DNA of 64,000 bases from Mesotaenium endlicherianum (taxonomy: Eukaryota): the NCBI GenBank assembly GCA_009602735.1, contig WELA01001462.1:238895-302894 (forward strand). Direction: 5' to 3'. Positions 31,633 to 54,307 of this stretch are shown piece after piece. The translations under genes were made by a program, and so were the position numbers. Each line of letters starts with the position of its first letter. Positions within the stretch are counted from its first letter, which is position 1. The notes under the pieces were generated by a model. The model did no database searches. It worked only from the letters and a program-made list of their open reading frames with translations, and was not told the DNA's origin.

Positions 31633-33565
31633 CTTGGGGCTTTTTGTGAGCGGCCATGGCGAAGAGGAGCGAGGCAAATTTGTGCCTGGGTTGCTAGGTA
31701 ACTCGTGATAGGGGCATGGGAGTGGGCGCTCACGCTCGTTTGATAGGTTTGTGGGTGCAAAGATTGAGAGCGCATGAAAGAAGTCAGCCATGGCCGCTCG
31801 TTGTGGTAGGCAGCCATGGCCGCCTGCTTGTTATGAGGGTGTTGAGAGAGAGAGAGGCCAGTATCGCCTTCTTCAGGTTGTGGAGGCGCTGTGGGTAGTG
31901 GCCATCCTGTCGCATCCACTCTGGCTGGGTTGATGCCCTTGGTCCATCTCCATTTTTTAACCATTTTTAGATTTTTCGCGGTAACTCCAATTGGCTCTCT
32001 TATTGGTGGCGCACCTCGACACAGCGTTGTTGTTGCAATTCAGTGAGTTAGGCACGCAAAGCAAAGTCTTCAGTCATAAGCTTCAGGACCTCCTTCATAT
32101 TGCGCATATCCTTCTTGCAACTGACTTTGACACTGCAGGTGTCGGTGTTGCCTTTCCTCTTCTTCAGAGCTTGATGCCGCACTTGTGATTGGTAGATATC
32201 CATCTCAGCAATCTTTAGCTGCAAGCCTTTTTCACCTTCAATTTCCATGATTTATTTGGATAAATCGGGTGCAATGCCCAAAGTTCCTTGTAGAGCTCCT
32301 CATCTTTTGATCTGGCCTCAAGACGACTTTAGTTAAAGCTTGTAAGTGAAATCTCCTTCCGTGTATCAAAATGTAACGATCCGCCGCGTGGCCGGATGCG
32401 GCGCGTGCAACACGTCGCGGATGCCACCGCAAGTGTCGGGTGGGTAAGAACCCCCCTATTGCTAAGTGGGGAAAAAGCCCACATGCCTTCTTGGAATGAG
32501 CAAAAAAAATACTTATAACAGGACTAAACTAACACCTAGAGAGAGAGTCTGTAATAGAGCACCAGTAGTGAGCATGAATTATGAAACATATGTGACGAGT
32601 CTATGGTCTGAGTCGACTAAGATAGCGAGTAGACTTCATTGTTATGTGAAATGAATCGACTTACCAAATAGGAAATTAACAGTTCATGAAGATCTGTATA
32701 TTAGCAAGTAATCTTTATGGTATTTTGTGTTAATTGAGTCAATAGCAAAAGACAACACACTAGCAGTGTACAATACTCGCAAGTCAAATGGAAGTAAACT
32801 AGCACCAATAATGCAATCAGTAAACTCGTACATAAGCAAGGCTAGAAGACAGTGCATATCAATGGCTTCTCGCCTTGGATTCAGATCTCTCTTCGTAAGT
32901 AGGACAAGAGAGTTGGCCTCGTTTCCAAATGCCGAACTCGAGAGCAATACCTAGCATATGTACATGGAATGAGTTTACTGTTCAACGGCCAGTGCGATGG
33001 CACCGCCTTCCCGGGAGTTAACCACGTTGGAAGGACCTCAGTTAACCAAATCCACCACCATCTCCCATCATCCGAATCGCCATCCATCCTAAGGATGTCA
33101 TTTGGCCATTCATCTAGCACACCACACTTAGATGCCTATCTAGGCAGTTCGCTCTACCGAGTACGGAAGTCAGCTGGCTGTCAAAGCATGTGTCAGCAAG
33201 CCGACCTAAGTTGACTTCAGCCGGCTGCTCCCGGCTGAGTCATTAAACCGATTATCTTATAAGGTCCAGCAGACTCAATATTAACTAAAGTTCAGCAGGC
33301 TGAACTTATTTAACTATTATATTCAAATAAATATTTTATCTACCAATATACTGATTCATTACAATCCCTCCAATTTAACAGGTTATCGCCTCGACAACAC
33401 TAACACTGGGTACATGATTTTCCCAAACTGAAAGTACTGATCTCCCTCCCACCGCCTCTTGCTCCAACACTGATGCCTAACTGTGGGGATCACTAGTAAC
33501 AGTGTGCTGTCCCTCCGCCCTCCGCCTACTGCCCTTATGAGGGAGATGTTATTGGGGCTCTACTG

Positions 33566-35200
33566 TCAAGGGAGCAAGATCGGGAGCCAGACCTGCGTTG
33601 GGGTCTCCTGAAGCCTGGGGCTCCGAGCAGGGAGAACCAAGGAGGAACGCATTAACTGGGCTGTTTCCTCCTGCACAGTCTGAAAATGAAAGGAGGCAGC
33701 CTTCTCCTGGGCATCCCTCAAACTGACAGGCACATATCCCGACATCCCAGAAGGATGTTGCAAGACATGAGCCAAAAGCACATGTCCTCTTTGTGAGGAA
33801 AATACTGGCAAGCCACTGGCAATTTCTCTAGCAGCCCTCCTGTCTGCCCTCTCTGGCTTGGTCTCTGCGCCTGCAGATGGGCTCTGTCCTCTGGCAGTTC
33901 CCAGCCACGAGATATCTTCCTCTTCAGCGAGCTGGTGCAGGGCTACGTCTGCCCTGGCCAACCCAATCTTCTCCATTACAGGGGATGTGGCAGGTGTCTG
34001 GGTCACAGCGGGGCTAGTGTCCTCTTCCTCGCCTTCCTCCTCTTTTTCCTCTGACTCCTCCTCTTCTCCCCCTGGCTCCTCTGAGACTGCTGGGTTCTCC
34101 TCTGTCAGCTGCTCCAGCTCTTCCCGAGAAAAAAAACACCCCACTGACCTTCCCCTTTTGGGTGCTGGTGGGGGCTGTTGAGTCCTGACCGCATACAGAT
34201 CTTTCTCTCCCTGCTTGCTTGCCCATATGGCATAAGCGTGCTTCCCTTTAGAGAATGACTCTCGGGCCCTGCTCCTGTCCTCCTGCATTTCTTGACTCAT
34301 GCAGTCTCTTACTCCATCCAATCTTGGGTCCCAAGCTGCAATGTGAGGGGGCAACACTATGTTCCCCTTTATGTCTGTTAGGAAATCTTCCTCCCCTGCC
34401 CTTTCATGTTGCTGATCCCTCATGTTGATGGTCATCCACCGCCAATCGGTGGGCTTTTGGAAGAAAACAGGGTCTGTCCTTTCCAGCGTCCAACGGTACC
34501 AATACCCTGCAAAGTCTAGCTGACTGGTTTCCCTGGCCAAGAATTCCCAGCTCCTTCTCTCCACCTCATTATACATGGCCTTGGACCTGTTATGGGATGT
34601 AGAGTCCTTAAAGCTGCCGCGTCCATAGGGATCATTATGATGACCCTATCTTTCCCCCAGATCCCCGAAATCGATACAGCTCCTTCCTCATCCACTTGGG
34701 CCATTGCCTTGGCCTCTCTGACCGTATATCCTATCATCCTTGCATAATCGTGGTAGAGGAGGAGTCCTGTGCTGACCTCTATATACTTGTCAAAGTTTTC
34801 GAATGTTTCCCCTTCCCTTTGCAGGATGTCCTTCTGTGACGCGCTGCAACTTCTCTAGGCATACTTGAAGGCCTCCTCCAGTAGATCAAAGCCCTTGCCC
34901 AGCACTGTGTAGCGGTAGCTGCTGATTCTCCTCTGTTCTTCTTCTTCAGCCTGCTGCTTCCGCCTCTCTTCAGCTTGCCTCTCCTCCTCTGCTTTCTTGG
35001 CCTCCTCTGCAACTTTTCTGTCCAGTTCTTCCTGCCTCAGTCTGGCCTGTTCCTCCTCCTCCTTCTTCTTCTGTGCCTCCCGCTATTGTTGGAGTCGTTG
35101 TGATTCCCGAGCGGAGATGGAGGATGATTTGATGTCGCCACGGAATTGCAAGTATTATGCATGTGCCTCTTCCGCTCTTCTCTTCCTCTTAAGTTTCGAC
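33566..35200 (-). pseudogene. Extra ORF between pol and the 3' LTR of chromovirus A, unknown function
   Basis: 336-aa ORF 34576-33566 (Trp-rich part, acidic tract), preceded by a broken charged coiled-coil-like frame (KKKEEEEQARLRQEELDRK) at ~35080-34860. The 5' boundary is approximate. Confidence 0.55.
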
Positions 35201-35585
35201 TTCTGAGTCATCCTGCTCAATCATAAACATAATGCAGTCAGTGAAGTCATGGTACTTTGCCGCTACTGAGTACTTTTGGTGGAGAAGAACGTGGTAGGGA
35301 GAATTCCAAGTGTGTAATACCTTGTGTGAGTGAGTAGAAGAGGAGAATTGAGTCAGAGAGAAAAAGTGAGTGTGAGCGCACGTTGAGTGTGTAAAATGAC
35401 TACACAAGAATTTGCCTGGCTGATTTCGAGGCGGAACACACTCCCTCCAACTTAATATTAAGGTGGGCTGCCTGTCACAACTGTCACTATCTGTCACTTA
35501 CTGTCACGTTTAACTGTCACGTTCCTCTCCAACTTATTTGGAGACAGGACCTCCTGTCACCTGTCCATGGCGACTGAAATGACTG

Positions 35586-38500
35586 TTAGGGAGAAGTGCC
35601 AGCCCCCCGAAGGTGGAACCGCTTCAACGCCCCTTTAGCAGTGATCAGCTGGTCTTTAAATTCCCAAGTGTCCCCAGAGGCATCGTACCCCTTCCATCTG
35701 ACTAGGTACTTCATGACATAATTAGATGATTGACGGACAAAGCGAGCGTCTAAATTCTCCTCGACCTCATATTCCTCAGGGTCACCATCGCGCACAGCGG
35801 GGACCGGTCCCGGTTGGACAGGTAATTGACCTGTGAACAATGTGTCACCTTTGATGTACGGTTCAAGGAAGGAGACATTAAAGACGGGATGACCCTTGTA
35901 TTCTGCTGACATGTTCAGTTTGTAAGTATTTTGACCAACACGGCGCACCACCGAATATGGACCGACCCAGACCGGACCAAGCTTTTTCTTGACCACACCA
36001 GGAAGGTACAGGTAATGAGAATGCAGTTTGACCAAATCGCCCTTAGAGAATGTCAGCTCTCGACGGTGCTCATTAGCGTATTTTTGTTGATTTTCTTGGG
36101 CTTTCTGCAGGTTCTGTTGGACTTCTGACAGGGTGTCAGCAAAACTCCTGGGTTAAATGTAGGGAGACCGAATGGTCAATCCCTTCAGGGTGAGTTAAAG
36201 ACTCCCCCAGTACATCTAAAGGAGACTTAGGGACTCTACCCAGGCTCAATTCAAAAGGAGTCTTGCCCGTTGACGCGTGCACCGCACTGTTGACCGCAAA
36301 CTGGATTTGAGGCAACAGGTCGTCCCAATTGTCTTATTTTTGGTTAATATATGCTCTCAACACCTCTTGCAGAACTCGGTTAGTTCTTTCAGTCAACCCA
36401 TCAGTCTGAGGGTGGTTTGCCGTGCTGAGCAGCTGTTTGACTCCCATTAACCCCATTAAAGCTCTCCAGAACTTAGAGGTAAATTTTGAGTCTCTGTCTG
36501 AGATGATATTAGAGGGTAGCCCATGTTGGCATACTACATGGTTGTAGAACTGTCTCGCTGTTTCGAGTGCAGTGACTTTGACAGTTGTGGGGATAACAAT
36601 GACCATTTTTGTCAATTTATCCACCACTACCAGTATAGAATCATGCCCATTGGCAGTTCGTGGTAGTGTTACCACCCAGTCCATGGATATTGTTTTCCTG
36701 CGTCCAACTGGGATGGGCAATGGTTGTAAGAGACCCCCCCGTGGTGTGTGCCTAGACTTATTTCTCAGACACTGATCACAGGACTTAACATATTTCAAGA
36801 CCTCCCGAGGCAACCCATCCCAATGATAATGTTTTGCCAGTTTGCCAACAATTTTGGCCTGCCCCAAATGCCCAGCCTGTAATTTGTCATGCGCTTGACT
36901 TAGTAAGAGGGACCTTATTTCCAAGTTATTGGGAATGACCAGCTTCAGCCTGCCTGAAGTGGTTTCAGTCACCCAAACCCCTCCCTTAAGCCTATATCGG
37001 AGTGCAGTAGCAGGACACACACCATCAGTGGGGCTGGGCTCAAATGTTGAGTCAGAAAGGTAGGCTTTTCTAAGTTGTTCAAGGAAGGACTTCTTCACCT
37101 TTAGTGAAGTGAGGGCTCACAGGACTTTATCTACAGCATGCTGACTAAAGTTCCTTTCTTGCAAGTCAGGTCTTCTAGAGAGTACATCAGCAGGATTTAA
37201 CTTTCCTGGTTTGTAGTCAATCTGGACTTGGAACTGCTCCAGCATCTGGCTCCAGCGGTTCTCCCTCCTCGACAGCTGGACTTCTTCTGAAAGTGAGTCA
37301 GAGCTTGATGATCTGTAATCACCTTAAAAGCTTTACCATGTCAGTATGCTCTCCCCTGTTTTAGCACATGAATGATAGCAAGCAGCTCTTTATCATGCAT
37401 GAAATAGTTAATTTCATCTGGGTTGTATTTCATAGACTCATACAGCACAGGGTGCCACTCCTGCCGTACCTTACCATCCTTTGCAATTTTGTGAGCAGGC
37501 TGCTACAAAATAACTCCCATGGCAAAGTCAGAAGCATCAGGAAGCACCTGCACAAATTTGCTGGGGTCATACACGACTAGCTCTGGGGCAGAACAAAGAG
37601 CATCTTTAAGGGTCTGGAAGGCAGCCTGTTGCTCTTCCCTCCACACATACCCTACATCTTTCTTAGGAAGGTCAGTCAATTTACTGGCCTTTGTAGAATA
37701 ATTCTCATTAAATTTCTTATAGTAGTTAGCCAACCCAAAGAAGGATCTAACTTTGGAGACAGATTGTGGTACAGGCCAGTCCCTTGTGGTGTGGACTTTC
37801 TTAGGATCCACCCTGACGCCTTCTTTACTGACAACGTGGCCTAAGAAATCAATACTTTCCTTGAAGAAATCACACTTGCTCATTTTAGCGTATAATTGAT
37901 TTCTTCTCGGAGTGTCCATGACTGTCCTTAAGTGTTCAACATGTTGAGCTTCATCTTAAAAGAAAATCAAAATATCATCCAAGAAGACTTGCACAAATTT
38001 ATCCAAATAAGGTCAAAAAATGTCATTCATGGCACCCATGAAGGTTGCAGGAGCATTAGTCAGTCCAAATGGCATCACGTTGAACTCATAGTGTCCATAA
38101 CGTGTGCAGAAGGCAGTCTTGTCTTCATCTCCCTCAGTAATTCTGATACAATGATAACCACTCTTGAGATCTATCTTACTGAACACTTTAGCACCAGACA
38201 GGGTATCAAGCAAGTCCTCGATTCTGGGTAAAGCATACTTGTTCTTTACGGTAATTCTGTTAAGAGCTCGGTGATCGACACTCATCCGCATACTCCCATC
38301 CTTTTTCTTAACAAATAGGATGGGTGCCCCATACGGTGAGGGGGAAAAATAACCATTTTCCTCAAGCTCTGCAATCTGTATTTTCAACTCTTCGCTCTCC
38401 ACATAAGACAAGCCATAAGTGCGTTGCCAGGTTGGCTGACTCCCCGGTAATAAATCAATCTTGTGATCTACATCCCTCTTAGGGGGTAGTCCTGGAGGCA

Positions 38501-38888
38501 TATTAAAACATCATAGTACGGAGCAACGATTTTTGCAGCAGTAGGGTGCTCCGGAGGGCTTACCTTTTTCTCAACCACTTTTTCAGGATAAGGAGGTACC
38601 TCTCGTAGCAGCAGACAGAACATTCTGTCTTCCTTCTGCTCCCAGCTTTCGATGAATTCCATTGCATTCAGCAATTTGCATCCTCCTGGAAGCCTATTCT
38701 TTTCCTTCATTTGCCATCCATACAGGACAAGAGGAAGAGCACTGGTGGGTGCCAAGTTAGTCTGCACATCACTGGCTCCTCTCACTTTAACTGTACCTCT
38801 GCTCCAATACACTTCAGCTTGATGTCTAGTGAGCCTAGCACGAGACCATAAAAGCCAGTGTTGAGTACCTCAAATGTAAGCGTTTCAG
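35586..38888 (-). pseudogene. pol of chromovirus A: protease C-terminal half, RT, RNase H, integrase, chromodomain (frameshifted)
   Basis: [44 protein letters not shown] (~37975), DASDFA, HHCC (HDKLQAGH..CDQC), ISMDWV / ISDRD / GLTER, WVGPY, and chromodomain YEVEENLD..KYLVRWKGY..DTWE. Confidence 0.95.
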
Positions 38889-40585
38889 TTAGAATCGCAG
38901 TCGCCGAATCTGCGCTGGCCGTGCCGGACTGCGTGCACGCGCCACGTGGAAGGACGTGTGCGCCGCTGGCGTGCGCAGCTGCTGCTGTGGCTGCCGAGCT
39001 GCGATCTTGTAGCTGGCTACTCGGCAAGCCTCGCGCCGCCGTGCGAGGTGTGAGCGGACGCGTGAGCGCGCGAATGTGCGCGTGGCTGCTGGCAAGAGCG
39101 GCTTGGCCTGCCGAACACGTGGCAAGGGTCGGCGCCTGCTGGACCCTGCTGCTTGCAGCAGCCAGCAGGGTGAGACCCTCCTGGCGTTGCCGGCTGGTGC
39201 GCAAATCTGCGCACGGAATGGCGACGCGTACGGCGAGGGCCGCAGCAGCCGTGTGTGCTGCAGACGTGTCACTCAGCTGGCGAGCAAGCCCTGTCGCGAC
39301 AGCTGACGATACGCAGACTGCTGGCAGCACTGCTGGCGTCAGCAGGACGGCACAGACAAGAGGGGCTGCCAAAGCCTGCGGCTGTGTTGGGGTGTGTGCC
39401 GGATCGTTAGGGGCGCGTTGGGAGCTGCAACGCCTGTGACGTCGGGTAGCGGGACCGAGTGCGCCTGCAGCCTGCCATCTGGCAGCCCGACCGGACGAGT
39501 GCAACGGCTGCTGACGGACATCAGCGCAGAGTGCGCAGGTCTGGCAGAAGCGTCTGCGCAGACGTATGCGGCGCTGGTCGCCGTAGCTCTGTCGTGGGGC
39601 GGGCGCGTGCAAGGCTGCAGCGCTGCTATAGCGCCAGGTGCCAGCCTCTGGGGCTGCCACGTGTAGGCGTCATGAAAGTGCGCAGGAGCTGCGCAAACGC
39701 CAGCTGTCGGAGCCGAGGCGTCGAACTGCGGGACGCGTGCGAAGAGGGCTCCGCACGCGTCGTAACTGTCGGTAGCGACGAGGCCACGGAGTCTGGCGAT
39801 CTCTGCGTTGGCCTCTACGAGGGCGTCGCTGACGTTGTTGAAACTGTAGTAATCGGCTCCGGAGGTCAGCGCGGCGTCCATCGTAGCTGGGGTTGCAATC
39901 ATCGAGGGACGTCCACCCGTGCGAGGGGTATGCATGCCCCGAAGTCCTGCTGTTGGCGCAGGACAGTCACGAGCCCGTCCGTTCTTGGCGTCGCGCTTCT
40001 TCTGCAGGCATACAATTCGCAGGTAGCCGGCCTTGCCACAGTAGGTGCAGTCACCGGGCTTGCCATTCTGCGCAATAGTGCAGTTCTGGCGAGAGTGGCC
40101 CGTCTTCCCGCAAGACCAACAGGGGTCACTCGTCGTGGCGGCCATGGAAATGCGGCCACGCGGAGCCCCGCGCTGCTGGGTCTGCTGGGACAGCTGAGAG
40201 CGCTGAGGCTGCTGCTGCTGTTGGGGCTGGCGAGCCGAAACTGGGCGCATTGTCGTGGATGGCAGCACCGAAGACTCCTGGCGTACTCCCGTGGATGCGA
40301 GGCCTACACGATCGCTAATGTTGCTCCGTGCGGCGGCCAAGCTCTGCTTCTCGACTGAGAGGTAAGCGTCCTCCAGCGAGTACTCGGAGCCAATGTGGTG
40401 GATGAGAGGAGCCATGGCTCGCTCCCTCAAACGTGGCTCTACGGCGCGCAAGAAGATCTCCGCTGCCTCCCGGTCAGTGACGGTGCCAACGTCTCGGCGA
40501 AGGTGCGTCAAGCGGCGGTACATCATGCGGATTGTCTCATTCTTGCGGCGGAAGAAGTGGTGCAGCTGACTTTCGCATTGTTCTC
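38889..40585 (-). mobile_element. GC-rich foreign gag fragment with two zinc knuckles inserted in chromovirus A
   Basis: Abrupt rise in GC and CpG; encodes CWSCGKTGHSRQNC and CTYCGKAGYLRIVC; family A protease-like sequence resumes at ~38888 (ETLTFEVLNTGFYGLVLG). Boundaries approximate. Confidence 0.75.
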
Positions 40586-40812
40586 CTGACTTAGCAAGGA
40601 AATGTTGGACATCAAGTGGAACAAGATCATCCAGAGTGTGTACTCTGTGGAGGTCTATTTTGCTGATGGTCTCCTTTATCTGTTTGTCAGGCATGCATAG
40701 TGAATCCAGTTCAGCAGGACCCGTAATATCTGCTACGAGGGCAGCTAGTGACGACTCACTATCTCTACCATCCTCACAGTCAGTAGACTGGATTACTGAC
40801 AGTTGCTATCTT

Positions 40813-42269
40813 TTAAGGCTGGTCTTTTCTCTCAACCTTTGGGAGGTGCTTGACTGGACACTGCTCTCTGAAGTGACCCAACTGCTGGCAATGGAAGCAA
40901 ACAGATTTTGCAGAGGCTGGTCTCGGCTTAGTCCTACCACCACCTCTTCCATAGCCACCTCCAGAGTAACCACCTCTCCCTCTAGACTGTATAGCATTAT
41001 ACTCATACTCGTACTCATCACCCGGATCATCCTCAGCCTGGTCTCCTTCAATTGCATTGTAGGACTCGTGGAGCTTTTTGACAATCTTAGACACCAAAGC
41101 ATTACTCTGGCGCTTGTGATTGAACTGCTACTGATCCCAGGCATCAGCATCCTGGATCAAGTCAGCCAATTTTTCTTACTTCTTCTCAGCAAAATGACCC
41201 GAGACTTCGGATTTCAAGCCATACTTGAAGTATGCTATCCTATATCGCTCTGGCAAGTCTGGCTGCTTCATCATGTTCTCCTAGAACTTTTGAGAAACTC
41301 AGCAACTGAAGTAGTTTGCTTCAGTGTCAAGGAGATCATTGCATAGATAGCTTTCTCCTGCTGGTTGATGACTTCAAACTTCTCATGCAGTTTCTCGACA
41401 AACTCTACTCAAGTAGGGTCACCGAGTTGCTGAGCCTTACGCTCTCCTTTCCAATACAGCCACCAGTCTTCTGCACTGCCTTTCAGTAGGGCATTAGTGT
41501 GCCTGACCTTCTCGTAATCTTGCAATCCTGGGTAGTTCTCCAGCCACTGCTCAACATCAGCGAGAAACTTGATCAGGTAATACTGTTTGTCTCCCTCAGG
41601 ATCATAATCCTGGGGAGGTTTCGGCTTAGGCATACTAGGCCCTCTGCCACCACCACCAGTGATTTGAGAACCCAGTTGGTCTCTGTCCTGCAGCAGTGAC
41701 ATTCTGATTCTTTTGTCAACCTGTTGGGACTGATTCATGCTCGTCATTTGCGATTGCATTTGCACAAATAATGCTTCCAAATCCACACTCTGAGGTGGGA
41801 GTCTAACAAATGCAGCAGTAGCAGTGGCATCCACTCGCTGAGTAGTGTCCTCAACAGTCCCTCTCGCTCTTGCAGCAACAACTCTTGCCGCATTCAGCCG
41901 GTCACGAACTTGACCTAGAGGCACATTGAGTTGTACAGCAAGAGGTGGGTTCAGAACATTGGCCCTTGCTGCCATAAGTTCTTCGACAGTGCGCTTGTCC
42001 GTTGGCTGTCCTTCCCTCCATTCTGTATCTTCAGCAGCCTTTGCTAATCGTTCAACTTCTAATCTGGCTCTCTCCTCCTCAGCCTGCTGTGTTGCGACTG
42101 CGGCAATAGCAGCTGCCTCATCTGTTGCCTCTCTAGCTGTAACATCTGCCACTGCTTCAGAATAGGTACGGGTTCCCGCTATATGACTTTCAGCCTGATT
42201 TTCGACATTCTCGTTATCCTGGTTCTCCATGTCTCGGAAGTTGCTAGTTTGAGACCTTGTCCTTACCAT
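40813..42269 (-). pseudogene. gag of chromovirus A (interrupted by stops)
   Basis: Starts MVRTRSQ just after the PBS; retrotransposon-gag-like LLKGSAEDWW; zinc knuckle CFHCQQLGHFREQC at ~40900. Confidence 0.85.
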
Positions 42270-43840
42270 ACAAAGAAGAGTGTGATAACTGCTCCGATAC
42301 CACTGAAATGAATCGACTTACCAAATAGGCGATTAACAATTAATGAAGATCTTTATATCACCAAGTAATCTTTCTGGTATTTTTTGTTAATTGATTCATC
42401 AGCAAAAGACAAACTAGCGTGTACAATACTCGCAAGTCAAATGGAAGTAAACTAGCATCAATAATGCAATCAGTAAACTCGTACATAAGCAAGGCTAGAA
42501 GACAATACATATCAATGGCTTCTCACCTTAGATTCATATATCTCTCCGTAAGCTTTACAAGTGAGTTGGCCTCGTTTCCAAATGCCGAACTCGAGAGCAA
42601 TACCTAGCATATGTACATGGAATGAGTCTACTGTTCAACGGCCAGTGCAATGGCACCGCCTACCCAGGAGTTAACCACGTCGGGAGGACCTCGATTCACC
42701 AAATCCACCGCCATCTCCCATCATCCCAAATCGCCATCCATCCTAAGGATGTCATCTGGCCACTCATCTAGCACACCACATTTAGATGCATATCTAGGCA
42801 GTTTGCTGCTACCGAGTACGGAAGTCAGTTGGCTGTCAAAGCATGTGTCAGCAAGCTGACCTAAGTTTACTTCAGCCTGCTGCTCCCGGCTGAGTCATTA
42901 AATTGATTATTTTACAAGGTCCAGCAGACTCAATATTAACTAAAGTTCAGCAGGCTGAACTTATTTAACTATAATATTTAAATGAATCTTATATCTACCA
43001 ATATATTGATTCATTACATGATGGCTGCTATGTTCCTCATTAGTTGGAGATAGAGAGAGAACATAAGCGGTGGAGCATTAGGAAGAGAATTGTCCCGGTT
43101 TAGACTTGGGAGCATGAGAGAATGAGGGCAAAGCGTTGATAGAAATCGGGAAGTGTGATCCTTAGTGTAACTTCAGACATATAAAGCTAAGTGCTGGAAT
43201 CAGCACTGTCAGAAAGTATAAGTACTAGCAAATATAAGACTTGGGCGGTTGGCTGCTCTTACTCTCTCTCATACACTGGCTCTCTCTAGGCTAAGCTGAA
43301 AGCATATTGGCAAAAGCGCGTGAAATGGAAAGCGTGTGCAAAAGAAGATAAAAGTAAGCGGCATCGCAGAAAATGAGTTGTCAGCCACGAGAAGGTGTGG
43401 CGCGAACTCGTGCTACACACCCTATCTTTGGGACGAATCCACCAAGCATTGTGGTCGGTCCCCTATCCCACCCACTAACTAATGACCCGATCAATCGGTG
43501 GAATCTGGGATGAGTCGGTGAGCCCATATTGCCCCACGACTTGCGGTGGCGAGGCGCGTGTGTGGGTCGGTGGGCACCATTAGTTCAGAGGGCTCCTCAC
43601 GGCAGCTCAAAAGCGACCTCATGAGGGGACTAGGGACTCAACACAACTCAGACCCAGACTCTCCTAGGTGCCTGGTTCTCACCTACCAACTCACCCCCCC
43701 AAGGATGCAAGTTCTAATAGGCTCCTCGACAAGAAGCAGCAGGCGACAAGCAACCATTTGACAGCTATTATGCTTGAAGCTGTCTGGAACTAACCATGTC
43801 GGTGATCCTAGAGAATGAACACAATTATGTTGAACGGCAG

Positions 43841-43986
43841 TGGGCAAACCCCCCTACTGCTAAGTGGGGGAAAAGCCCACATGCCTTCTTGGAATGAGCA
43901 AACAAAATAATTATTTCAACACTAAACTAATACTTAGAGAGAGAGTCTGTAATAGAGCACCAGCACTGAGCATGAACTATGAAACA
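43841..43986 (-). repeat. LTR end (family D) adjoining a PPT; duplicated at ~32441-32588
   Basis: On - strand reads GGGAGGGG|TGTTTCAT at 43994-43979; ~145-bp near-identical copy at 32441-32588. Confidence 0.7.
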
Positions 43987-44418
43987 CCCCTCCCAGTTGA
44001 GGTGGAGGGACCAAAAGGGAGAACCGACAAGGAAGCTGTAGACGGCGTAGGGTTGGTGAGATTAGAGACCAAGGCCTCAGGCGAAGAGCTGGAGAAGAAA
44101 TCGGGCGAGATGTACTTGTGCGAGAATGTCTGGAGCGTAGTAACAGGATAAACATCCAGAATGGAGTAGAGGTCGGGGTTGACAACGGAGCGGCGACCGT
44201 CAGCGAAAGGAGTAGAATGGCAGTCGGGGCAAAGGAGAAGAAGTCGTTGGTCAGCGTCTAGCGCATGCTAGGCGTAAGTAGGGGCGGCGGTTGAGAAGCG
44301 TCGGAGAGCAGCGACTGCTCCCACCAGGATGAGGGTACAAACGCGTCCACACCTGCGCGAAGAAAGAGCAGAGCGGCGAAACAGGGTACGCACAGGTGGG
44401 AGTGCTATCCTAAGCAGG

Positions 44419-44555
44419 ACAGAGGGGACAGTGTTAGGTGCCCGCGGGGACACGAGCAAGGGGGGGACTAAGGCAAGAGAGATGCCAACCTTGGTTACCA
44501 ACATTGCAGAGGAGCATGAATGCAGGACGGTTAGCAGAACCACAGTGTGTGCAAG
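44419..44555 (-). pseudogene. PHD finger at the C-terminus of the family B integrase
   Basis: CTHC..MLLCNVGNQGWHLSCLSPPLARVPAGT*HCPLC matches the C4HC3 pattern, with one Cys lost and the conserved Trp replaced by a stop. Confidence 0.85.
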
Positions 44556-47500
44556 GGCGATTAGCGGGGACAGTAGCAAGCAAAGGGTCAATTTTGTGGC
44601 GGATATTTGGAAGATGGCAAGGTGCGCAGTTGGGAGTATGCTCACAAAGTGTGCGCCTACCGGATCCCTCAATCGTGAGAACCCCATTAGGTGAGACAGT
44701 GCGGACGCGTAAGATCACGAGACCAGCCTGGACGTCTAAAGTGTCCTTGGTTTTGCGTTGCAGATAGACATAGTCCTCAGGTTCAAACTTAACCAGGCGC
44801 GATTTATAAACTCCGCTGCGCAGGCGGGCATAGCGGCGTGTGTCCCGGTGTTGTGCAATTAACAGGTTATGGAAACACGACGTTGGAAGAGGAGGGTGCG
44901 CTCTCAAAGGTGGGAGAGAAGAAAATCAGGATTTTCTAAGTCCAGAGATATAGTGAGGCAACGGCGGAGAGTAGAGGGGAGCAGGGGCTCACGTCCATAG
45001 AGGAGTAAGTAAGGGGAGTAGGTGCGGAGGGAAGCCTGGTTGCTAAAGTTATAACCCATGGCCAGCCTGGGTATGTGGAGGTCCTAATCGCTAACATCAT
45101 GAGCCAGACCGTACTTGCGCAAGCCCCGTTTCACAATCTAAACCACCCGCTCGGCCAGACTATCAGCCTGGGGGTGATCACGGGACGTGGTTCAATGGTC
45201 AATGAATGCGCGTTCCAGGAGGGTAGATAACTCACCTTCAAACTCCGACCCTTGATCCGTCAGGTCTTCAGCACAGGTCCCAAAGCGACACAATACGCGC
45301 TCTATGAAGGCGACAGCCACATACCCACTGGACTTGTCAACCAAGTTAACGAGCTCAATCCATTTGGTGAAATGCTCGATCACAACGAGCACATAACGAT
45401 GCACGCGCCGGGACACGGGCAGGGGCCTGCTAGATTCAAAGACCACCGGTACAACATCCCACGAATGAGCAACGGCTGAAGCGTGGATGGAGTAGCATTG
45501 AAACTAGTGCGCACCTAATTGCAGATCGTGCAAGATCGGAGAACAACAGCGCCTTTAGTGACCATCCCTACCCACCAGTTGTCAGCTCGGAGCAGGGCAG
45601 CCGTACGACGGGCCCCAAAGTGTCCTAATTCTAAGTGGACGCGATAAATGAGAGCACTACGTTCTGCGACCTACGGTACCACCTTCTAGACACCCCAAAG
45701 GACCCGAAAAAGAGACCCGTCTTGCCAGCGGTAGCGCAGATTGCATTGCAAGATTTTATCGCGCTCACCGAGCGCCACGCCGACAGGCATTAGCTGACTA
45801 CGTAGGTAGGTGAGAACAGGGGTGTCATTCCAGACATCAGTAGAGAGAGGAGAGGTGTTAGGTTCGTCCAGATTCAAGACAGGGACTGAAGAAGACAATC
45901 CGAGAAAGTAAGACGCATGCCAAGCTGGCAATAGGTGCTCTTGCAGCTGGGAGGCGTCACGAGCACTCGTGGAATCGGCTTCAGAGGGATCAGGGTTGCG
46001 GCTGAGACCGTCGGCATCCTGATGCGCAAGTCCGGCCTTGTGTTCAAGCGTAAACTTGTACTCTTGTAGTATTAATGCCCAACGCGCATGCTTCCCGATG
46101 AGACGTTGGTTTGTCACGAGCCAGCGCAATGGTTGGTGAACAGTGTTCAACGTGAAGTGAATTCTGTAGAGGTAAGGTCGGAAGTGCACTACCCCCCAGA
46201 CTGCTGCCAGACATTCTCCTTCGTAGGAGCTGTAGTTCTTTTTGGCGGAGTTATTACTACGATTCGCATAGGCCACTACGTACTCGTGACTCTCGTGGTC
46301 GGGTTGAGCTAAAACAACGCCCAATCCCAGGTGGCTCCAGTCTGTATGAAGCACAAACAAACGCTTGTAATCAGGGCAATTTAAAATAGGCGCGGAAGCT
46401 AGCAGGACTTTCAGATGCTCGAACGCTGTCTGACACGCTAGAGTCCATTCCCACATGACCTCTTTCTTGAGCAAGGCGTTCAAGGATGCAGCTACGGTGC
46501 TAAACTTGGAACAAAAGGGGCGGTAGTAACCTGTGATTCCCATAAACGCACGTAAACGCGAGACATTGGTAGGTAATGGCAGACGCTGAATAGCGCCAAC
46601 TTTAACCTGCAACGGCGTGAGACCCTCGGGTACTATGTAGTGACCCAAATATGCTACTGACAGCGTGGTGATCTTGCACTTGCTCGGATGGCAGCGTAGT
46701 CCAGCTTGACGCAAACGTTGTAAAACAATCTATACGTGCGTGAGATGCTCTGAAACTGAGCGGCTGAAAATAAGGACGTCATTTATGTAGCATCTGGCGA
46801 ACGCAACTTCCGCTAGCACCCGATCCATGACTCGCTGAAAACGGGCGGGCGCGTTCTTAAGCCCAAAGGGCATCATGCCCCACTGGTACAGACAGTTGCT
46901 GAGCCCCCCAAAACGTTAACTTATACTTATCCTTTAGGTCTATAAGGATTTGGTTGAAGCCCTGTCGGAGATCTAACACGCAGAACACACAAACGTCCTC
47001 TATTGTATAGAAGATATCCTCAGCTAGCGGCATAGGGTAGCGATGGAGTTTGGTAACACTGTTTAACTCGCGGTAATCGCTGCACATGCGTTTTTCGGTG
47101 TAATTTCCCTCTAGATCTTTTTTTGCGGGCGTGACAGTCGAGGCTACGAAGTCAGACACGGAGTCCTCAATTAGGCCTGTCTTCAACAGTTCTGCACACT
47201 TTTCTTCGATAATATCCCTCTCTACCTTGCTGTGACGGTATGGTCTTCTAAAAACGGGTTCGGAGGTGGTTAACTCAACATTCATGTGCGAGATTGTGCA
47301 AACGCCTAAGTCCATGATCGTGCGTGCGAAGCAATCCTCATTGCTGGCTAGCAGGGCTAAGAATTGGGTGGCCTCATCCTCCGTTAATTGTGCTCCGAGA
47401 TCCCATGCTAACGGCGCAAGTGTCGGAACTAAGGTGCTCAAAGATGAAACCGTTAACTGCTATGCGCACGTGGGAAGACTAGCGCGGAGTCTAGGCAAAG

Positions 47501-47589
47501 CGAGAAGTGAGGTGAAAGGGAGAAGGGTGCGGGGAGTGCGCCCACACGCACTCACGCACCCTCACGCGCGAGTAGAAGCGTGCACGAGG

Positions 47590-48227
47590 ACCTTTCCTAG
47601 TTGCATACACAAGGTGGAGTGGCCTGGTGGTGTGCCACCCTTGCAAGAGTAAGAGAGCTACATGAGAGAGGAGTGGAAAAAGACCTCACTTGATGAAGAA
47701 AAGTCGTGTACAAGATAAGAAGCTTAATCTGGACTAGACAAGACCCCCTCTCCTTCCTTGTGCTTTCTATTTATGCTTCAACTCTTAGTGTCCTCTCTAG
47801 CAAAGTACTCTAGAACCTTCTACTATGGCTCCTTCCATGTAGGTGACCTTGCCTAGTTGGACAAGCTAGCACACTCACACGCACACATTTACGCTCTAGA
47901 ATATTCTACTACACAATCCACTAACTCCTCACGGAGTTTCTAGAAATTCCACAATCACTTTGGCACTCTACGTAATCGTACGTAGTTTCTGGAACCCTCA
48001 TGATTCAATGTCCTACTTTCTGGACTCCAACCAAAATTTTTGTCACTAAACCTGTCCTTGTCACTAAATTAAATCTGTGACACTAAAAGCTCACTAAAAA
48101 CTCCCAAAACTCATGTTTCCTAATACTTGTCCAAATGACTTGAACTAAAGGTCAAAGTTCTTCTAAACTCACACTCTATGCATATAAAATGCTAGTAAAA
48201 TACAAACCACACTTTCATAACCTTACA
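47590..48227. mobile_element. AT-rich LTR-like insertion between the methyltransferase and RT of family B
   Basis: Composition shift, no ORF, ends CCTTACA; possible TSD CGAGG/TGAGG. The left terminus is not a canonical TG. Confidence 0.5.
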
Positions 48228-48324
48228 TGAGGAGAAACCCCCCCCTTGGCCGAAAGAGGAGAGATGGTAGAGCGAAACAGCGTGCTAGGGAGTGTGTGTG
48301 CATGTGTTAAGAACAGGAAGAATT

Positions 48325-49275
48325 GAGAAGAGCCACGTGAGGACGTGAACGTCCATGACACGGCCCAGCAGCTGGCAGCGTTGGGAATCAGAGAGGGACG
48401 AGGAGATAGTAGCAGAGGGGAAAAATCCGAGAGCGACTTCACGTTTGAGGGCATTAGGTTCGACGTATTGGGAAAGTGTGGGTCAAAGTGCATGCCCGGC
48501 CCGAAGTTGCGGAAAGCGTAAAACGACGGACGACTGACCAGGGTAGGGAAGGCGGCACGAGGGTGACCGGGTCGGTTAATGCCACAAGAAGACGAGTGGT
48601 CCACAGTCTAGACCTCTATGGGACAGCGGTGGGACGAGAGGATGGAGGAGAGGAGGAGGGAGGGAGGAGAAGCATGGAGTGTGGAGACTAAGAAGCGGAA
48701 GTGAGAGGGACTGAGGAAATTTTGTCAAAATGCGCGAGAACGGTGCGCGTAGGAACCGATCGCGACAGCGTCGCGAACGACTGCAGGACCAAGAATAGAG
48801 GTGACTGTGAGAAAGTCGTGACGAACAGTGGAACGAGCGTCGTCGGCAAAATAGACATTCTCTACGAGGTAAGCGAGCGGGTGACTTTGGTGGGACAGGA
48901 GGTGACTGAGGATCCAAACGAGTTCAAAGAACAGATGAGAACGAGGATCAGACAGACTCAACCCTTTCCCTGCACGGGAGTGACCTTGGCATTCCCACCC
49001 GCCGACTACCAGATCAACGGGACCAAGGGCGGACAAATGGCTGGGTTGTATGAGACAGACGTCTTGTGGCAGGGTAGAATATGCTGTTGTGTGAGATGAA
49101 GGAGGAAGCTGACGAGGGAAGAGGCAACTGAGACGGGAGAGGCGTACAGCGCTGGCCTGACGGGCGAGGAGGTCAATATCACAATAAACATTTTGTGAAA
49201 TAGTATAACTGCTTAACAGAAGGCCTGCGACTAGGGAAGACACTCCAGCAAAGAGGTCGAGGACTACGAGTCCAT
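48325..49275 (-). pseudogene. C5 cytosine DNA methyltransferase domain within retrotransposon pol
   Basis: Motif I VLDLFAG (~49265-49245); II YCDID; III QDV; IV DLVVGGWECQGHSRAG followed by DPRSHLF; VI LVENV (~48860); VIII AHRSRAF*; IX-X EPNALKREVALGF..RCQLLGRVMD (~48460-48350). Confidence 0.9.
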
Positions 49276-52200
49276 TCGGATGGGAAGACCAAGAGACTGG
49301 TGCAGTGTGGAGATGGGGAATGCCCACAAGTGGCGGAAGGTTGGGAACTGATGGGGGTGGACAGAAATTGGAGGAGGAGCGTAAGGCTAATTGAACTCGG
49401 GTCTGTGTGGCAGCTGACATGGTGTAAGTGGAGGCGGTGGAAGGAGTCAGCGTCGACGCGGGCGGGATATCAGTGGTAGCGTCGTGAGAGATGAGGTAGG
49501 AGGAAGACCCCAGGTCAGATGGACACACGTCATCAATGGATACGGCAAACGCGGAATTCACAACGCTGACAGAGAAGCGCACGGGATGAGTGAATACTAC
49601 GGGAAGGTAGCCTATGTGAGCCCCGTTAGACTGGTAGTTGACTCGGTAAGTAGCATTGCCACACTAGGAGTCTATAGCCATCCCCATTAGAAAGTTAAAT
49701 TCTTGACCTGTGAGAACATCGTAGGATGTGGATTCGGTAACCATGCATTGGGCGTAGAGGGTGAGATCTGCTGAGGTGTCGGCATTGAGGGTGATGGGTA
49801 GGCGGCGACGTGTTTGAAATGAGGTGTGAGTGTGCGCGGACATGGTTGTGGAGACTAGGTTTGGACAGAGTTCCAGATCTGCGGACGTAATGCCTAGATT
49901 CTGACACATGACCACCCCAAGAAGGACCAGCTGGGCACCAGTGTCCAAAATAACGACGCGTGGAGCAAGGTACTTAATTAAGAAACACGATTAGCGGTTG
50001 TCCAACATCACATTGCGAGGGAAGGATTGCTGACGAGCCTCTGGAGTAAGAGAAGAGGGTAAAGAATCATACCTGAGGTGGCCCTGCGAGACAAAAGCAG
50101 GCGTGGAAGCGGGAGCGATTGAAGAAGGCTTACCAGGTTTGATGTCGACAGGCGGTAGGCGCGCAGCACCATCGGTGGATGACGTTGGAGGGCTTGCCTC
50201 CTCAGGCTCGATCGTGGCTTGGAAGGCGGCGTCAACGCTGTCGACTGTGGAGGGTATGGTATTGGTACATATGAGGTCTATCATAGAAGGACGGGTGCTG
50301 GTGGTGTCACCGCAGCGGTGGGCGAGCTCCTGCGTGATGCGCCCCTGGGCCAGCACCAACTGGGCAACAGAAAGAACGGGGAGCAAGGTGAAAAACGGCT
50401 GTAGGATTAAGAGGCGGCGGAATGAAGCGGACCACTGGGACCACCGCAGATAGTGAGGAAGAGGGGACAAACGAGGGGGATGAGGGTGAGAGCTTCTTGG
50501 GAAGTTTGGCTGCAAGCTCATCCAGTGCAGAGTCAGTTGCTAACGCTAAAGGCATTACGGGAGTAGACGGCTGAGAAAAGGACGGCTGAGGCGCGGGCAA
50601 AGTGTATGTGACGGTACCAAAAGCGGACATAGTAGTATCAGGGAGAGTTTGCGAGGAAGATGGGGAGCGGCAAGCAGGTTCCAAATCCACGTAGCAGGCA
50701 AGCGTGGCATCGTGGGTAGCTGAAGGAGTCGACATTGGGAGATCGGCCACCACCTGGGCGTAGGACGGTGGTAAGAGGAGGTCCCTTTTGACTGTAGCAG
50801 CAGCGGCCCTGAGGTTGTCACAAATAGCTTGGGTGTAAAATTGTGCCTCCTGAAAGTCTGCTGCCATAATGCATAAGGTGCCTGCAGGCACTCCCCCAAC
50901 CTTCGAGAACCGGAACAGTAGGAGCTGTCCCAAAAGTAGCGAAATGTTCCGAAAAATCCAAAGATCGAGGAATCTGAGCGATAGAGTGTTCGAGGTTGCG
51001 GTTGTGATCAGGCCCACCGGCAAGGGGTGGAGGCGCGGTAACTTCCGTGCATGCAACACGACGAGTGTGCACTGCGTGAATATGGACTGAATCACTGAGC
51101 ACTTCATGCACGCAATAAGCGGAATCAGGTGGGCGGAGAAACGAAAATGGCCTATCCGGCATTTGAGGTTGACGTGGATGAAGACCCACGTAGCTGGCAG
51201 AATCGGGTTGGGACCTGACGCGTCGGTGCATGTCTTGCAAACTGGCCTGGAGAGCTGCCAGTTGTTGTCGCACAACGAACTCGTCGGCTGCTGGCAGAGG
51301 GTAGTGAGTCTGCGGAGAAGGCAGCAGCGGAGGTAGGTGGACCACTGCCCCCGTAGCTGTGGATGGCGGTCGATGTACCCAACTGGGCGGAGCCTTGTGC
51401 GGGTATAGGGTGTAGCAGTCGGCGATGACGTGACCCCTCCTCTTGCAGTGATTGCAGGTGGCGCGTTTAGGAGCCACAGCAGGTTGAGCTCCCATCCTAG
51501 AGATGGCAGGCGTGGACACCTGCACAGCATGTGCACCCGCAGTTGGTTGCTTAGCATGGCGTCAATCAGAGGCTACGACAGCTGCAACCATTTCCAATTG
51601 TTTTACCCAAGCACAAATCTGCTTCAAATTGCGTTTGGCTGGATTGGAAAGAGCGTATTGCTGCTGCAACCTGTCCCACAAAGAAGGCATGGCACGCATA
51701 TATTGAAAGCAAGCGTCATTAGCACCCAAGAAGAGCCCAATATCCTAAATGAGTATACTAATGCGGTGCCGCAACATCAGGGGTGTTTCTCCTGCTCGTC
51801 GCTCCAAACCCCTAATCTCATCCTGGCGAGCCACAGAATCAAGCGAATATGCTTTTCGTAGCTGTTCTAGGAACACAACAACTCGATCCACAGGCGCGTC
51901 TGGGTGTGGGTTGTGGAAGGGAACGTGGACTCTCATTAGTGCTTGGCGCTGCCGCTGCTGCAAGTCTCGTTGTTGTAGATCCAGGGAACGTGCTGCCGCA
52001 ATTTGAATTAGCATTGCATATGCGATTAGGCTTCTCTCCTCCGGATCGGGTTCCTCTATTGCAACCACAGCGAGAGGGTCGGGCAGGGCAGCTCCCCCTC
52101 TCGCTCCTGGAATCAATATTCCTCCCACGAGCACACCACCTCCTCTCGGGCCTCCACCTTCTCCCCCTTCTTTCTCCACCTTCTTGGGCGGCACCCTCAT

Positions 52201-52761
52201 CGGCAGGGCCAGCTGCTGGTATAGAAACGACAGTTGGGACAGCTACATTGCCCGCAGGTGGAGTAGTACGAATCAGGAACGGTTTGCTATCCTCATATTG
52301 TGTCAGGGCGTCTTCACTCAGGTAGTTGGGTAGCATAAGAAACAAGTCATCACTAGTGACTATCGTTACGGGACCGCAATATTGCATAGGATGCTTTCAG
52401 CCTGGAACACAACGTGTGCAAAGTCATCCCAGATGGTCTCCCAGAGAGGAGCTGGTGAAACACTCCTCCCATGTCTGACGTCATTTCGTCTTTTACAGAA
52501 TGGGGATCGGTATTCTCTCCAAGTGCTTCTCCTTTGGTGCTACATTCGGTGTCGTAAGGGCTGAGAAGGGCAGGATCATGGATTTTTACTTCGGTTACTG
52601 TTTCAACAGCAAGCTGTAGGGGCCTGAACACTACCCCACTCCGTGTGCGACTGGGTTCGAAAAGCATACAACTTAGAGAGTAGCCCGTGGCACCTCCTTA
52701 GGACGGCCAAACTTGTAGAAGAGTGCTATGGTTAGCAGACCAACCCACAGTCCATTCACAC

Positions 52762-53482
52762 TGAAATGAATCGACTTACCAAATAGACGATTAACAATTA
52801 ATAAAGATCTTTATATCAACAAGTAATCTTTATGGTATTTTCCGTTAACTGGTTAAACGGCAAAGGACAACACACTAGCAGTGAATAATACTTGTAAGTC
52901 AAATGCGAGTAAACTAGCATCAATAATGCAAATCAGTAAACTCATACATAAGCAAGGTTAGAAGACAGTGCGTATCAATGGCTTCTCGCCTTGGATTCAG
53001 ATCTCTCTCAGTAAGCTGTACAAGAGAGTTGGCCTCGTTTCCGAATGCCGAACTCGAGAGCAATGCCTAGCATATGTACAAGGAATGAGTTTACTGTTCA
53101 ACGGCCAGTGCGATGGCACCGCCTACCCGGGACTTAACCACGTTGGTAGGACCTCGGTTTACCAAATCCACCGCCATCTCACATCATCCCGAATAGCCAT
53201 CCACCATAGGGATGTCATCTGGCCATTCATCTAGCATATCGCACTTAGATGCATATCAAGGCAGTTCGCTGCTACCGAGTACGGAAGTCAGCTGGCTGTC
53301 AAAGAATGTGTCAGCAAGCTGACTTAAATGGACTTCAGCCTCCTGCTTCCGGCTGAGTCATTAAACTGGTATTAAATATCAAATCCAGCAGAGTGATTAA
53401 TAACTAGTGTTCAGCAGGCTGAACTAAATTAACTATTATATTTAAATGAATATTATATCTACTAATATACTCATTCATTACA
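52762..53482 (-). mobile_element. Solo LTR of family A
   Basis: TGAAATGAATCGAC..TTCATTACA homologous to the A LTRs; 5-bp TSD CACAC on both sides. Confidence 0.92.
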
Positions 53483-53505: not shown

Positions 53506-54307
53506 TATGAGACGAGTCTGTGGTCTGGGTCGACTAGGTTAGCGAGTAGACTAGATTGTTATGGCTGCTATGTTACTCGTTAGTTGGAGATAGGGAGAGA
53601 ACGTAAGCGGTAGAGGATCAGGAAGAGAATTGTCCTGATTCAGACACGGGAGCATGAGAGATTCAGGGCAAAGCGTGGATAAAAATCGGAAAGTGTGATC
53701 CTTAGAGTAACTTCAGACATACAAAGTTGAGTGCTAGAATCAGCATTGCCAAATAGTATAAGTACTAGCGAATATAAGACCCAGGCGGCTGGTTGCTCTT
53801 ACTCTCTCTCACACACTGCCTCGATCTCTCTAGGCTAAGCTGAAAGCATATTGGCGAAAGCGCGTGAAATGGAAAGCGTGTGCAGTAGAAGATAAAAGTA
53901 AGCGGCGTTGCAGGAAATGAGTTGTCAGCCACGAGAAGGTGTGGCGCGGACTCGTGCTATACTCCTTATCTTTGGGACGAACCTCCCAAGCATTATGATC
54001 GGTCCCCTATCCCACCCGCTAACTAATGACCAGGTCAGCCGGTGGAATCTGGGATGAGACGGTGAGCCCATGTTGCCCCACGACTCGCGGTGGCGAGGCG
54101 CGTGTGTGGGCCGGTGGGCACCATTAGTTCAGAGGGCTCCTCATGGCAACTCAAAAGCGACCTCATGAGGGGACTAGGGACTCAACACAACTCAGACCCA
54201 GACTCTCCTAGCTGCCCGGTCCTCACCTACCAACCCACCCCCCCAAGGATGCAAGTACTGATAGGTTCCTCGACAAGAAGCAGCAAGCGACAAGCAACCA
54301 CCTGACA
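53506..54307. repeat. LTR-like repeat family C, right copy
   Basis: Direct repeat of the split left copy; the near-identical 71-aa ORFs at 43546 and 54090 reflect this. Confidence 0.85.

Follow-up and report, generated by a model that had tools for sequence, protein, structure and literature searches.

The closest described relatives of the element reported here are KnitGypsy-Dnmt3 of Klebsormidium nitens and the streptophyte 'Gypsy-DNMT3' retrotransposons, in which pol contains a DNMT3 domain and the repeats are DIRS-like (PMC5890265). The window analysed here is a stretch of 64,000 nucleotides from Mesotaenium endlicherianum (assembly GCA_009602735.1, contig WELA01001462.1, forward-strand positions 238,895 to 302,894). 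On its minus strand, from about 54307 to 32434, it contains a retrotransposon with the order gag, protease (PR), DNMT, reverse transcriptase (RT), RNase H (RH), integrase (INT) and PHD finger, giving pol the domain order PR-DNMT-RT-RH-INT-PHD. The order PR-RT-RH-INT with a DDE integrase, an unpermuted DNMT3-like domain and split direct repeats place it among the Gypsy-DNMT3 elements. The assignment is one of architecture, because no K. nitens sequence is in the comparison; the searches for relatives returned none. The locus is a dead, decayed copy that carries a real, conserved feature. We lean, by a little, to reading it as a decayed Gypsy-DNMT3 element in whose relatives the PHD finger would tether the integration complex via histone H3, the DNMT3-like enzyme being separate.

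Like our element, KnitGypsy-Dnmt3 has a Gypsy pol with a DNMT3-like domain, in which the key DNMT residues are kept, and repeats in the order A-coding-B-A-B. The available text of its description mentions neither a PHD finger nor a chromodomain, and three supplementary files are without the word 'PHD'; Fig. 4c might show one. Two positions of the DNMT domain, chlorophyte members and a stop codon before RT, all encountered here, are also absent from that text (PMC5890265). The EpiLTRs and DAM-LTRs resemble our element in combining a cytosine DNMT with a reader of histones within a single long terminal repeat (LTR) retrotransposon. They differ in that their reader is a chromodomain, that their DNMT is sister to DNMT4 and occupies the 3' end of pol, and that they also contain an adenine methyltransferase; their authors set the EpiLTRs apart from Gypsy-DNMT3 in the text available (bioRxiv 10.64898/2026.05.21.726589). 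With the chromoviruses, including one nested in our element, it shares a Ty3/Gypsy pol with a chromatin reader at the integrase carboxy-terminus (PMC6317226). Where chromoviruses have a chromodomain, two full LTRs and a tRNA-Met-type primer site, our element has a PHD finger, split repeats, a DNMT and no such primer site after repeat A1. No match to PF00385 was found anywhere in the element. In the tree of RT and RH sequences the nested element is the sole chromovirus and lies on a long branch whose place is unsure.

The solved structures closest to the DNMT domain are those of DNMT3A and DNMT3B. In these an ADD domain, which reads unmethylated H3K4, directly precedes the catalytic domain, while in our element and its relatives a canonical PHD finger follows the integrase and the DNMT lies 500 to 1,300 residues upstream of the finger. 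Among the PHD-bearing Gypsy elements of Chlamydomonas, REM1 reportedly carries its PHD finger in a separate antisense open reading frame (ORF). In Gypsy-7a_cRei, also from Chlamydomonas, the PHD finger is likewise an accessory domain of a green-algal Gypsy element, and is proposed to limit harmful insertions; no DNMT is listed for it and the figure legend puts the PHD finger before the integrase (PMC9940879). PHD fingers are encoded by many retrotransposons (PMC6673714), including Chlamys elements (PMC8557442), fusions of PHD fingers with transposons are common (bioRxiv 10.1101/2021.11.30.470311), and DNMT3 in retrotransposons is mentioned elsewhere without a PHD finger in the text available (PMC12344493). 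For Phygy and Selgy, compared by description only, neither a PHD finger nor a methyltransferase is mentioned in the available text of PMC6317226. Troyka was considered and rejected: its ends are CG...CG, its target duplication is 3 bp and it is described from animals only (PMC12440569, available text), as opposed to the TGTCA...GACA ends in the window.

Gypsy-DNMT3 elements, PHD-bearing Gypsy elements, elements with a chromodomain plus DNMT and the general idea of pairing reader and writer are thus already in print (PMC5890265; bioRxiv 10.64898/2026.05.21.726589; both as far as available). The pairing of a PHD finger with DNMT3 was not found stated in the literature searched, in which most subscription journals were outside coverage and some sources were available in part. 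What is newest here is the conserved stop before RT, together with the two positions of the DNMT and the chlorophyte range.

The initial annotation had read positions 44419-44907 as a C4HC3 PHD finger ending pol, on the integrase. On the minus strand this segment consists of the integrase tail followed by a PHD finger at 44553-44419. The finger is thus present at the end of pol, but in this copy it is broken. Seven of its eight ligands are kept (Cys at 44553, 44544, 44508, 44475, 44430 and 44421, His at 44484); glycine occupies the fourth ligand slot (44499), a TAA codon (44436-44434) takes the slot of a conserved tryptophan, ahead of the last CxxC, and asparagine is found in the slot of the aspartate that binds H3R2. 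A complete Cys4-His-Cys3 set in one frame is found in intact relatives, not in the window copy. Likewise, integrase and PHD finger share an ORF in intact relatives, but here tail and finger have lost the frame of the integrase core through a frameshift near 44865-44880. The PF00628 profile matches the window finger with an E-value of 8.3e-05 and 23 bits, just below the Pfam cut-off of 24 bits, because the open frame ends within the finger; all 22 relatives scanned score above the cut-off. The top match among solved structures is the PHD finger of ATXR5 (E 4.7e-07), and a six-frame search of the window with a loose PHD pattern gives a single match, compared with none in 30 shuffles. Relative to an intact relative, the window pol contains at least 13 internal stops. 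Contigs of run X1, possibly the source of this DNA, are identical to the window over 43871-46019 and 45990-47500, which rules out assembly errors as the cause of the breaks. The placement of the finger in the slot of a chromodomain, also proposed initially, is borne out within the window, as the nested chromovirus has its Chromo domain after its own SH3 tail.

Relatives were collected in several ways. A query with the integrase tail gave 33 longer proteins, 30 of them with PF00628 on record and the other three truncated. A single-sequence search with the DNMT gave one match, and a profile was used instead, which gave 128 long proteins (120 of these among the matches listed) and 522 representatives with E-values of at most 1e-30 (150 of these among the matches listed). 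The comparison also includes 80 metagenome loci (L numbers; P numbers denote proteins), many of them near-copies, from hosts that are probably few. When the 232 DNMT-selected proteins among the matches listed are considered, 85 lack an integrase and 30 end before the PHD slot; of the 117 that reach it, 111 have a PHD finger. Three of the six exceptions are apparently frameshifted and three have lost the finger in frame (P0088, P0169 and P0193). Conversely, of the 28 loci selected by the tail whose upstream DNA is long enough, 27 have a DNMT. The two domains therefore do co-occur, and the finger is neither absent from nor out of frame in intact copies: 68 of 71 loci have integrase and PHD finger in a common frame, 12 of them with no stop between the two, and L012 and L015 each contain an intact RT-RH-INT-PHD ORF of 1,047 amino acids. 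All named relatives belong to the green lineage (their hosts include Marchantia, Volvox, Pleodorina, Haematococcus, Chromochloris and Cymbomonas), the finger being kept from chlorophytes to Marchantia; no relative was found in the viral contigs searched. Two annotated hypothetical proteins of Marchantia polymorpha, P0004 and P0007, are pieces of the element family, the latter joining a DNMT remnant, a piece of integrase and a PHD finger.

The solved PHD fingers closest to those of the family are those of CHD4, KDM5A/B (PHD1), PHF21A, ATXR5, DPF3, UHRF1 and AIRE. Readers of this kind are described as having no aromatic cage, with an aspartate for H3R2 and a tryptophan pocket for H3A1 (bioRxiv 10.1101/715474, available part). 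These features are present in the family, as tallied on 140 protein PHD fingers, 129 of which fit a pattern of our own making: the aspartate, located after the third cysteine as in KDM5A PHD1, is found in 119 of the 129, the tryptophan of the H3A1 pocket in 123 and a glycine two residues before the histidine in 115. In readers of K4me3 that last position holds a tryptophan of the cage; in a separate tally of the family, tryptophan is found there in one of 90. The residues for A1 and R2 are among the best conserved non-ligand positions. Because aspartate, tryptophan and glycine are kept, the finger of the family likely binds the free amino-terminus of histone H3; a preference for unmethylated K4 is plausible, with less certainty. 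In a structure model of P0003 the integrase core is followed by a long helix, the beta-rich tail, a loose low-confidence linker and a terminal domain, the PHD region behind the linker having predicted local distance difference test (pLDDT) values of 87-93. A folded terminal domain on a loose linker is the layout expected of a tether, and an integration tether is likely what the finger is. All 56 proteins aligned have the cysteine of the P-C-H motif that precedes the linker. Many proteins of the P0013 type have 250-370 residues beyond the PHD finger, P0033 and P0064 with a weak Tudor-like match (PF21743) in their tails; in P0013-type proteins this extra tail is possibly a second reader. P0019, one of 22 relatives, has a weak Chromo match, below cut-off, behind its finger.

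A DNA methylase in the same element, as annotated initially, is confirmed by the C5 methylase domain upstream (PF00145, E 1.7e-06). Motifs I, IV (G-W-E-C-Q), VI (E-N-V) and VIII follow each other in this order, so the domain is unpermuted, and of 51 matches among solved structures the best 29 are all DNMT3A, DNMT3B or DNMT3C (best E 4.9e-17). The catalytic motifs are retained in most of the relatives' DNMT domains. Two arrangements are found. In the window's type, the DNMT is located between protease and RT, and about 1,100 codons, with RT, RNase H and integrase among them, separate it from the PHD finger (1,044-1,323 in four loci). In the other type, to which the named Haematococcus, Chromochloris and Pleodorina proteins belong, it is located between RNase H and integrase, with medians of 134 amino acids before the integrase and 514 before the finger (121 proteins); RH-DNMT-INT-tail-PHD is the commonest protein architecture (85 of 262). 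In quick trees, the RT/RH one built from 36 random type-1 rows and all others, the RNase H-DNMT-integrase type forms one side of a branch with a support of 100, and three changes of position label separate the types in the DNMT tree.

The window and 14 of the 24 loci of the same type have an in-frame TAG-CAR stop, 121-128 codons ahead of RT. It occurs in three subfamilies, represented by the window (47462-47454, minus strand), by L012 (4661-4669) and L015 (5083-5091), and by a third family. The window and L015 have TAG CAG TTA in common, and in the intact L012 and L015 the TAG-CAR is the sole stop between DNMT and RT. Three database proteins of the subclade with the DNMT before RT end 128-166 amino acids after the DNMT. 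The sequence UAG-CAR-YYA is the tobamovirus-type read-through signal, and the stop is likely read through. If so, the DNMT would be made mostly without RT, integrase and PHD finger. Such an excess suits an enzyme required in many copies on the cDNA and a finger serving the integrase; with an ADD-like module in the window type it is at odds. For this type the initial proposal of a self-contained reader-writer module, comparable to ADD and catalytic domain of DNMT3, is therefore doubtful, given the distance and the stop between the domains, and the DNMT3-like enzyme likely works apart from the PHD finger.

According to the reading we lean to, the PHD finger on the integrase would grip the free H3 amino-terminus of nucleosomes, with a predicted preference for K4me0, and would so steer insertions away from promoters marked with H3K4me3. 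Reading through the stop at a low rate would yield DNMT in excess over RT-integrase-PHD, and the surplus enzyme may methylate either cDNA inside the particle or the newly inserted copy. The protease would separate the products, so the finger would travel with the integrase. Reader and writer would then share one strategy, to land in quiet chromatin and arrive marked, without forming a single ADD-like module. A precedent for the tether is the PHD-bearing Gypsy-7a_cRei, for which the available text gives intergenic insertion at 2.6 times chance (PMC9940879).

Several observations weigh against this reading. Of the 24 loci of the same type, seven have no stop, two are unreadable and one has TAA-CAA; where the stop is present, 12 loci of the 14 belong to one family and read TAG CAA CCC, which is not a full CAR-YYA, and in P0136, P0143 and P0261 DNMT and RT are fused without interruption. 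In KDM5A PHD1 an acidic patch touches K4; it is absent in 11 of 14 window-type PHD fingers, so discrimination at K4 may be weak. The ratio of observed to expected CpG is 0.89 in the window pol, compared with 0.41 in the nested chromovirus; as the window pol is not CpG-depleted, steady self-methylation at CG is weakly disfavoured, though six relatives have ratios of 0.39-0.73. KnitGypsy-Dnmt3 gave no DNA methylation in yeast, a result its authors call inconclusive in the text available (PMC5890265). The selection estimates given below come from one well-diverged intact pair, most others being saturated or decayed. Finally, in the other type a direct coupling of DNMT and integrase is possible, because the DNMT lies a median of 134 amino acids before the integrase.

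A rival reading, along the lines of the initial annotation, is a direct reader-writer module, in which the DNMT is joined to, or binds, the integrase-PHD part and is targeted or activated by the finger at K4-unmethylated nucleosomes, as by the ADD domain of DNMT3A. The near-obligate pairing of the two domains speaks for it, as do the catalytic motifs kept in most DNMT domains and a type of finger that matches the K4me0 preference of ADD; moreover, the commonest proteins place the DNMT directly before INT-PHD in one ORF, as do L052, L054 and L064. However, pol polyproteins are normally cleaved into separate enzymes, and the window's type has one of the two domains towards each end of pol, separated by the stop in three subfamilies. 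The DNMT has moved within pol while the finger has stayed on the integrase. P0088, P0169 and P0193 keep the DNMT despite the in-frame loss of the finger, and Pleodorina P0016 keeps its finger with altered DNMT catalytic motifs. We regard a direct module as rather unlikely. The same applies to a bolder scheme, in which an old, large clade of the green lineage would run a programmed write-then-read cycle: DNMT3 in excess by read-through would pre-methylate the cDNA, PHD-integrase would land on H3K4-unmethylated nucleosomes with the palindromic junction described below as end signal, and in the chlorophyte type DNMT3 would remain fused to integrase-PHD, a transposon-built equivalent of the ADD and catalytic domains of DNMT3A. 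As a whole this scheme would have to be called improbable.

That the finger has a job other than histone binding, i.e. that it binds a host factor or another protein of the element, or aids the integrase at the internal repeat junction, is in our estimate quite unlikely. The clade to which the finger is tied has unusual A-B-A-B repeats and a GACA-GC-TGTC palindrome at their junction, the cysteine of the P-C-H motif is invariant and window-type fingers are without the acidic patch, all of which would suit such a job; yet the residues for H3 A1 and R2 are highly conserved and the close matches among solved structures come almost entirely from chromatin proteins. It is highly improbable that the finger is a passenger or a chance pattern without a present role. 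It is broken in the window copy, and all ligands are kept in only 43 of the 67 complete PHD matches in the metagenome loci. However, the whole window pol is equally decayed, the pattern is absent from shuffled sequence and the finger persists from chlorophytes to Marchantia. In the intact pair L012 and L015 the ratios of nonsynonymous to synonymous substitution rates (dN/dS) are 0.04 for the PHD finger, 0.02 for the integrase and 0.12 for the DNMT, which largely refutes a passenger; in decayed pairs the ratio is near 1 and distant pairs are saturated. By these estimates the PHD finger of the relatives is under purifying selection.

The features of the element are listed in Table 1.

Table 1. 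Coordinates in the window of the element and of the insertions within it
Feature	Position	Strand	Remarks
Repeat A1, left element end	53506..54307	-	starts TGTCA
Solo LTR of the nested-chromovirus family	52762..53482	-	target duplication GTGTG
Decayed gag-like region	50310..52396	-	CCHC-type knuckle, without Pfam match; gag label inferred from position
Aspartic protease	49682..50008	-	
DNMT3-like C5 cytosine methyltransferase domain	48318..49297	-	interrupted by two stops and a frameshift
Solo LTR of another high-copy family, between DNMT and RT	47513..48227	-	5-bp target duplication CCTCA
In-frame TAG CAG TTA between DNMT and RT	47454..47462	-	candidate read-through signal
Reverse transcriptase region	46634..47459	-	one frameshift near 46890
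RNase H	46058..46447	-	
Integrase HHCC zinc finger and catalytic core	44991..45667	-	stops, one frameshift near 45420
Frameshift, integrase core versus tail, window copy	44865..44880	-	
Integrase carboxy-terminal beta-rich (SH3-like) tail	44581..44865	-	ends in conserved P-C-H motif; in PHD frame; SH3 label inferred from predicted strands and position
PHD finger, broken	44419..44553	-	Gly in fourth ligand slot; TAA 44436-44434
Repeat B1	43766..43986	-	directly after G-rich polypurine tract; GC linker 43765-43764 to A2
Repeat A2, first part	43021..43763	-	split by nested chromovirus
Nested chromovirus	32647..43018	-	RT, RH, INT, Chromo; target duplication CATCA/CATAA
Repeat A2, last part	32589..32646	-	
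Repeat B2, right element end	32434..32588	-	alignment with B1 reaches 32449; right end, near 32434, uncertain

Three later insertions, two solo LTRs and one chromovirus, each with a 5-bp target duplication, interrupt the element; when they are set aside, the repeats have the order A1-coding-B1-A2-B2. The nested chromovirus has its LTRs at 43018-42297 and 33363-32647, and a primer site that we take to be of the tRNA-Met type. The divergence is 0.10 substitutions per site for both A1/A2 and B1/B2 and 0.08 for the chromovirus LTRs. Between A1 and A2, transitions are commoner at CHG (18 of 113) and CG (12 of 126) than at CHH (24 of 511), an enrichment which suggests that the window copy was methylated in place. 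No target duplication is readable at the ends of the window element (GTTT versus CTTG); the relative L028 has one of 4 bp. The A-coding-B-A-B repeats are complete in L028, L062 and L070, and B...B pairs are found in at least ten more loci. Inside the element, repeat B ends in CACGACA and, after a linker of two bases, repeat A starts with TGTCA, which creates the palindrome GACA-GC-TGTC. It is seen in L002, L020, L047, L059, L068, L069 and others, and in a decayed form in the window (43772-43759). The outer ends of the element are the two halves of this palindrome, and the junction looks like a stored circle junction or an integrase end signal. No slippery heptamer common to the relatives was found at the overlap of gag and PR.

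One high-copy chromovirus family has inserted twice in or beside the A repeats, with separate target duplications. Inside the nested chromovirus, a GC-rich gag-like fragment with a CCHC knuckle (39342-40805, minus strand) resembles the gag of the DNMT clade (P0133, E 1e-09; L068, E 3e-08) and is part of another member of the family. The 3' region of the chromovirus contains an open frame of 359 codons without Pfam matches (33569-34645, minus strand). Outside the element, a long exon-like ORF with a hydrophobic amino-terminus (27460-28527, minus strand) belongs to the arginase/agmatinase family, its closest solved structure being a bacterial guanidinopropionase (E 6.8e-59). The contigs suggest that the window copy is without a close sibling. 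As to expression, no reads on the coding parts of the element were found in X6, X9 and X12, for which 6-24% of each run was covered, and two partial ones were found in X10. Contigs of two other studies are nearly without the window stretch (two records in X5, one in X15); as these strains may lack the insertion, a blank there is no evidence.

The window locus itself is modest, because its ingredients are known and the copy is dead. The family widens the range of Gypsy-DNMT3 from streptophytes to chlorophytes. It also offers two natural arrangements, with the DNMT either beside the integrase or upstream behind a presumably leaky stop, and intact members in algae that can be cultured. If the inferences made here hold, these elements would provide a testable case for why retrotransposons carry a cytosine methyltransferase of their own, a question left open in PMC5890265.

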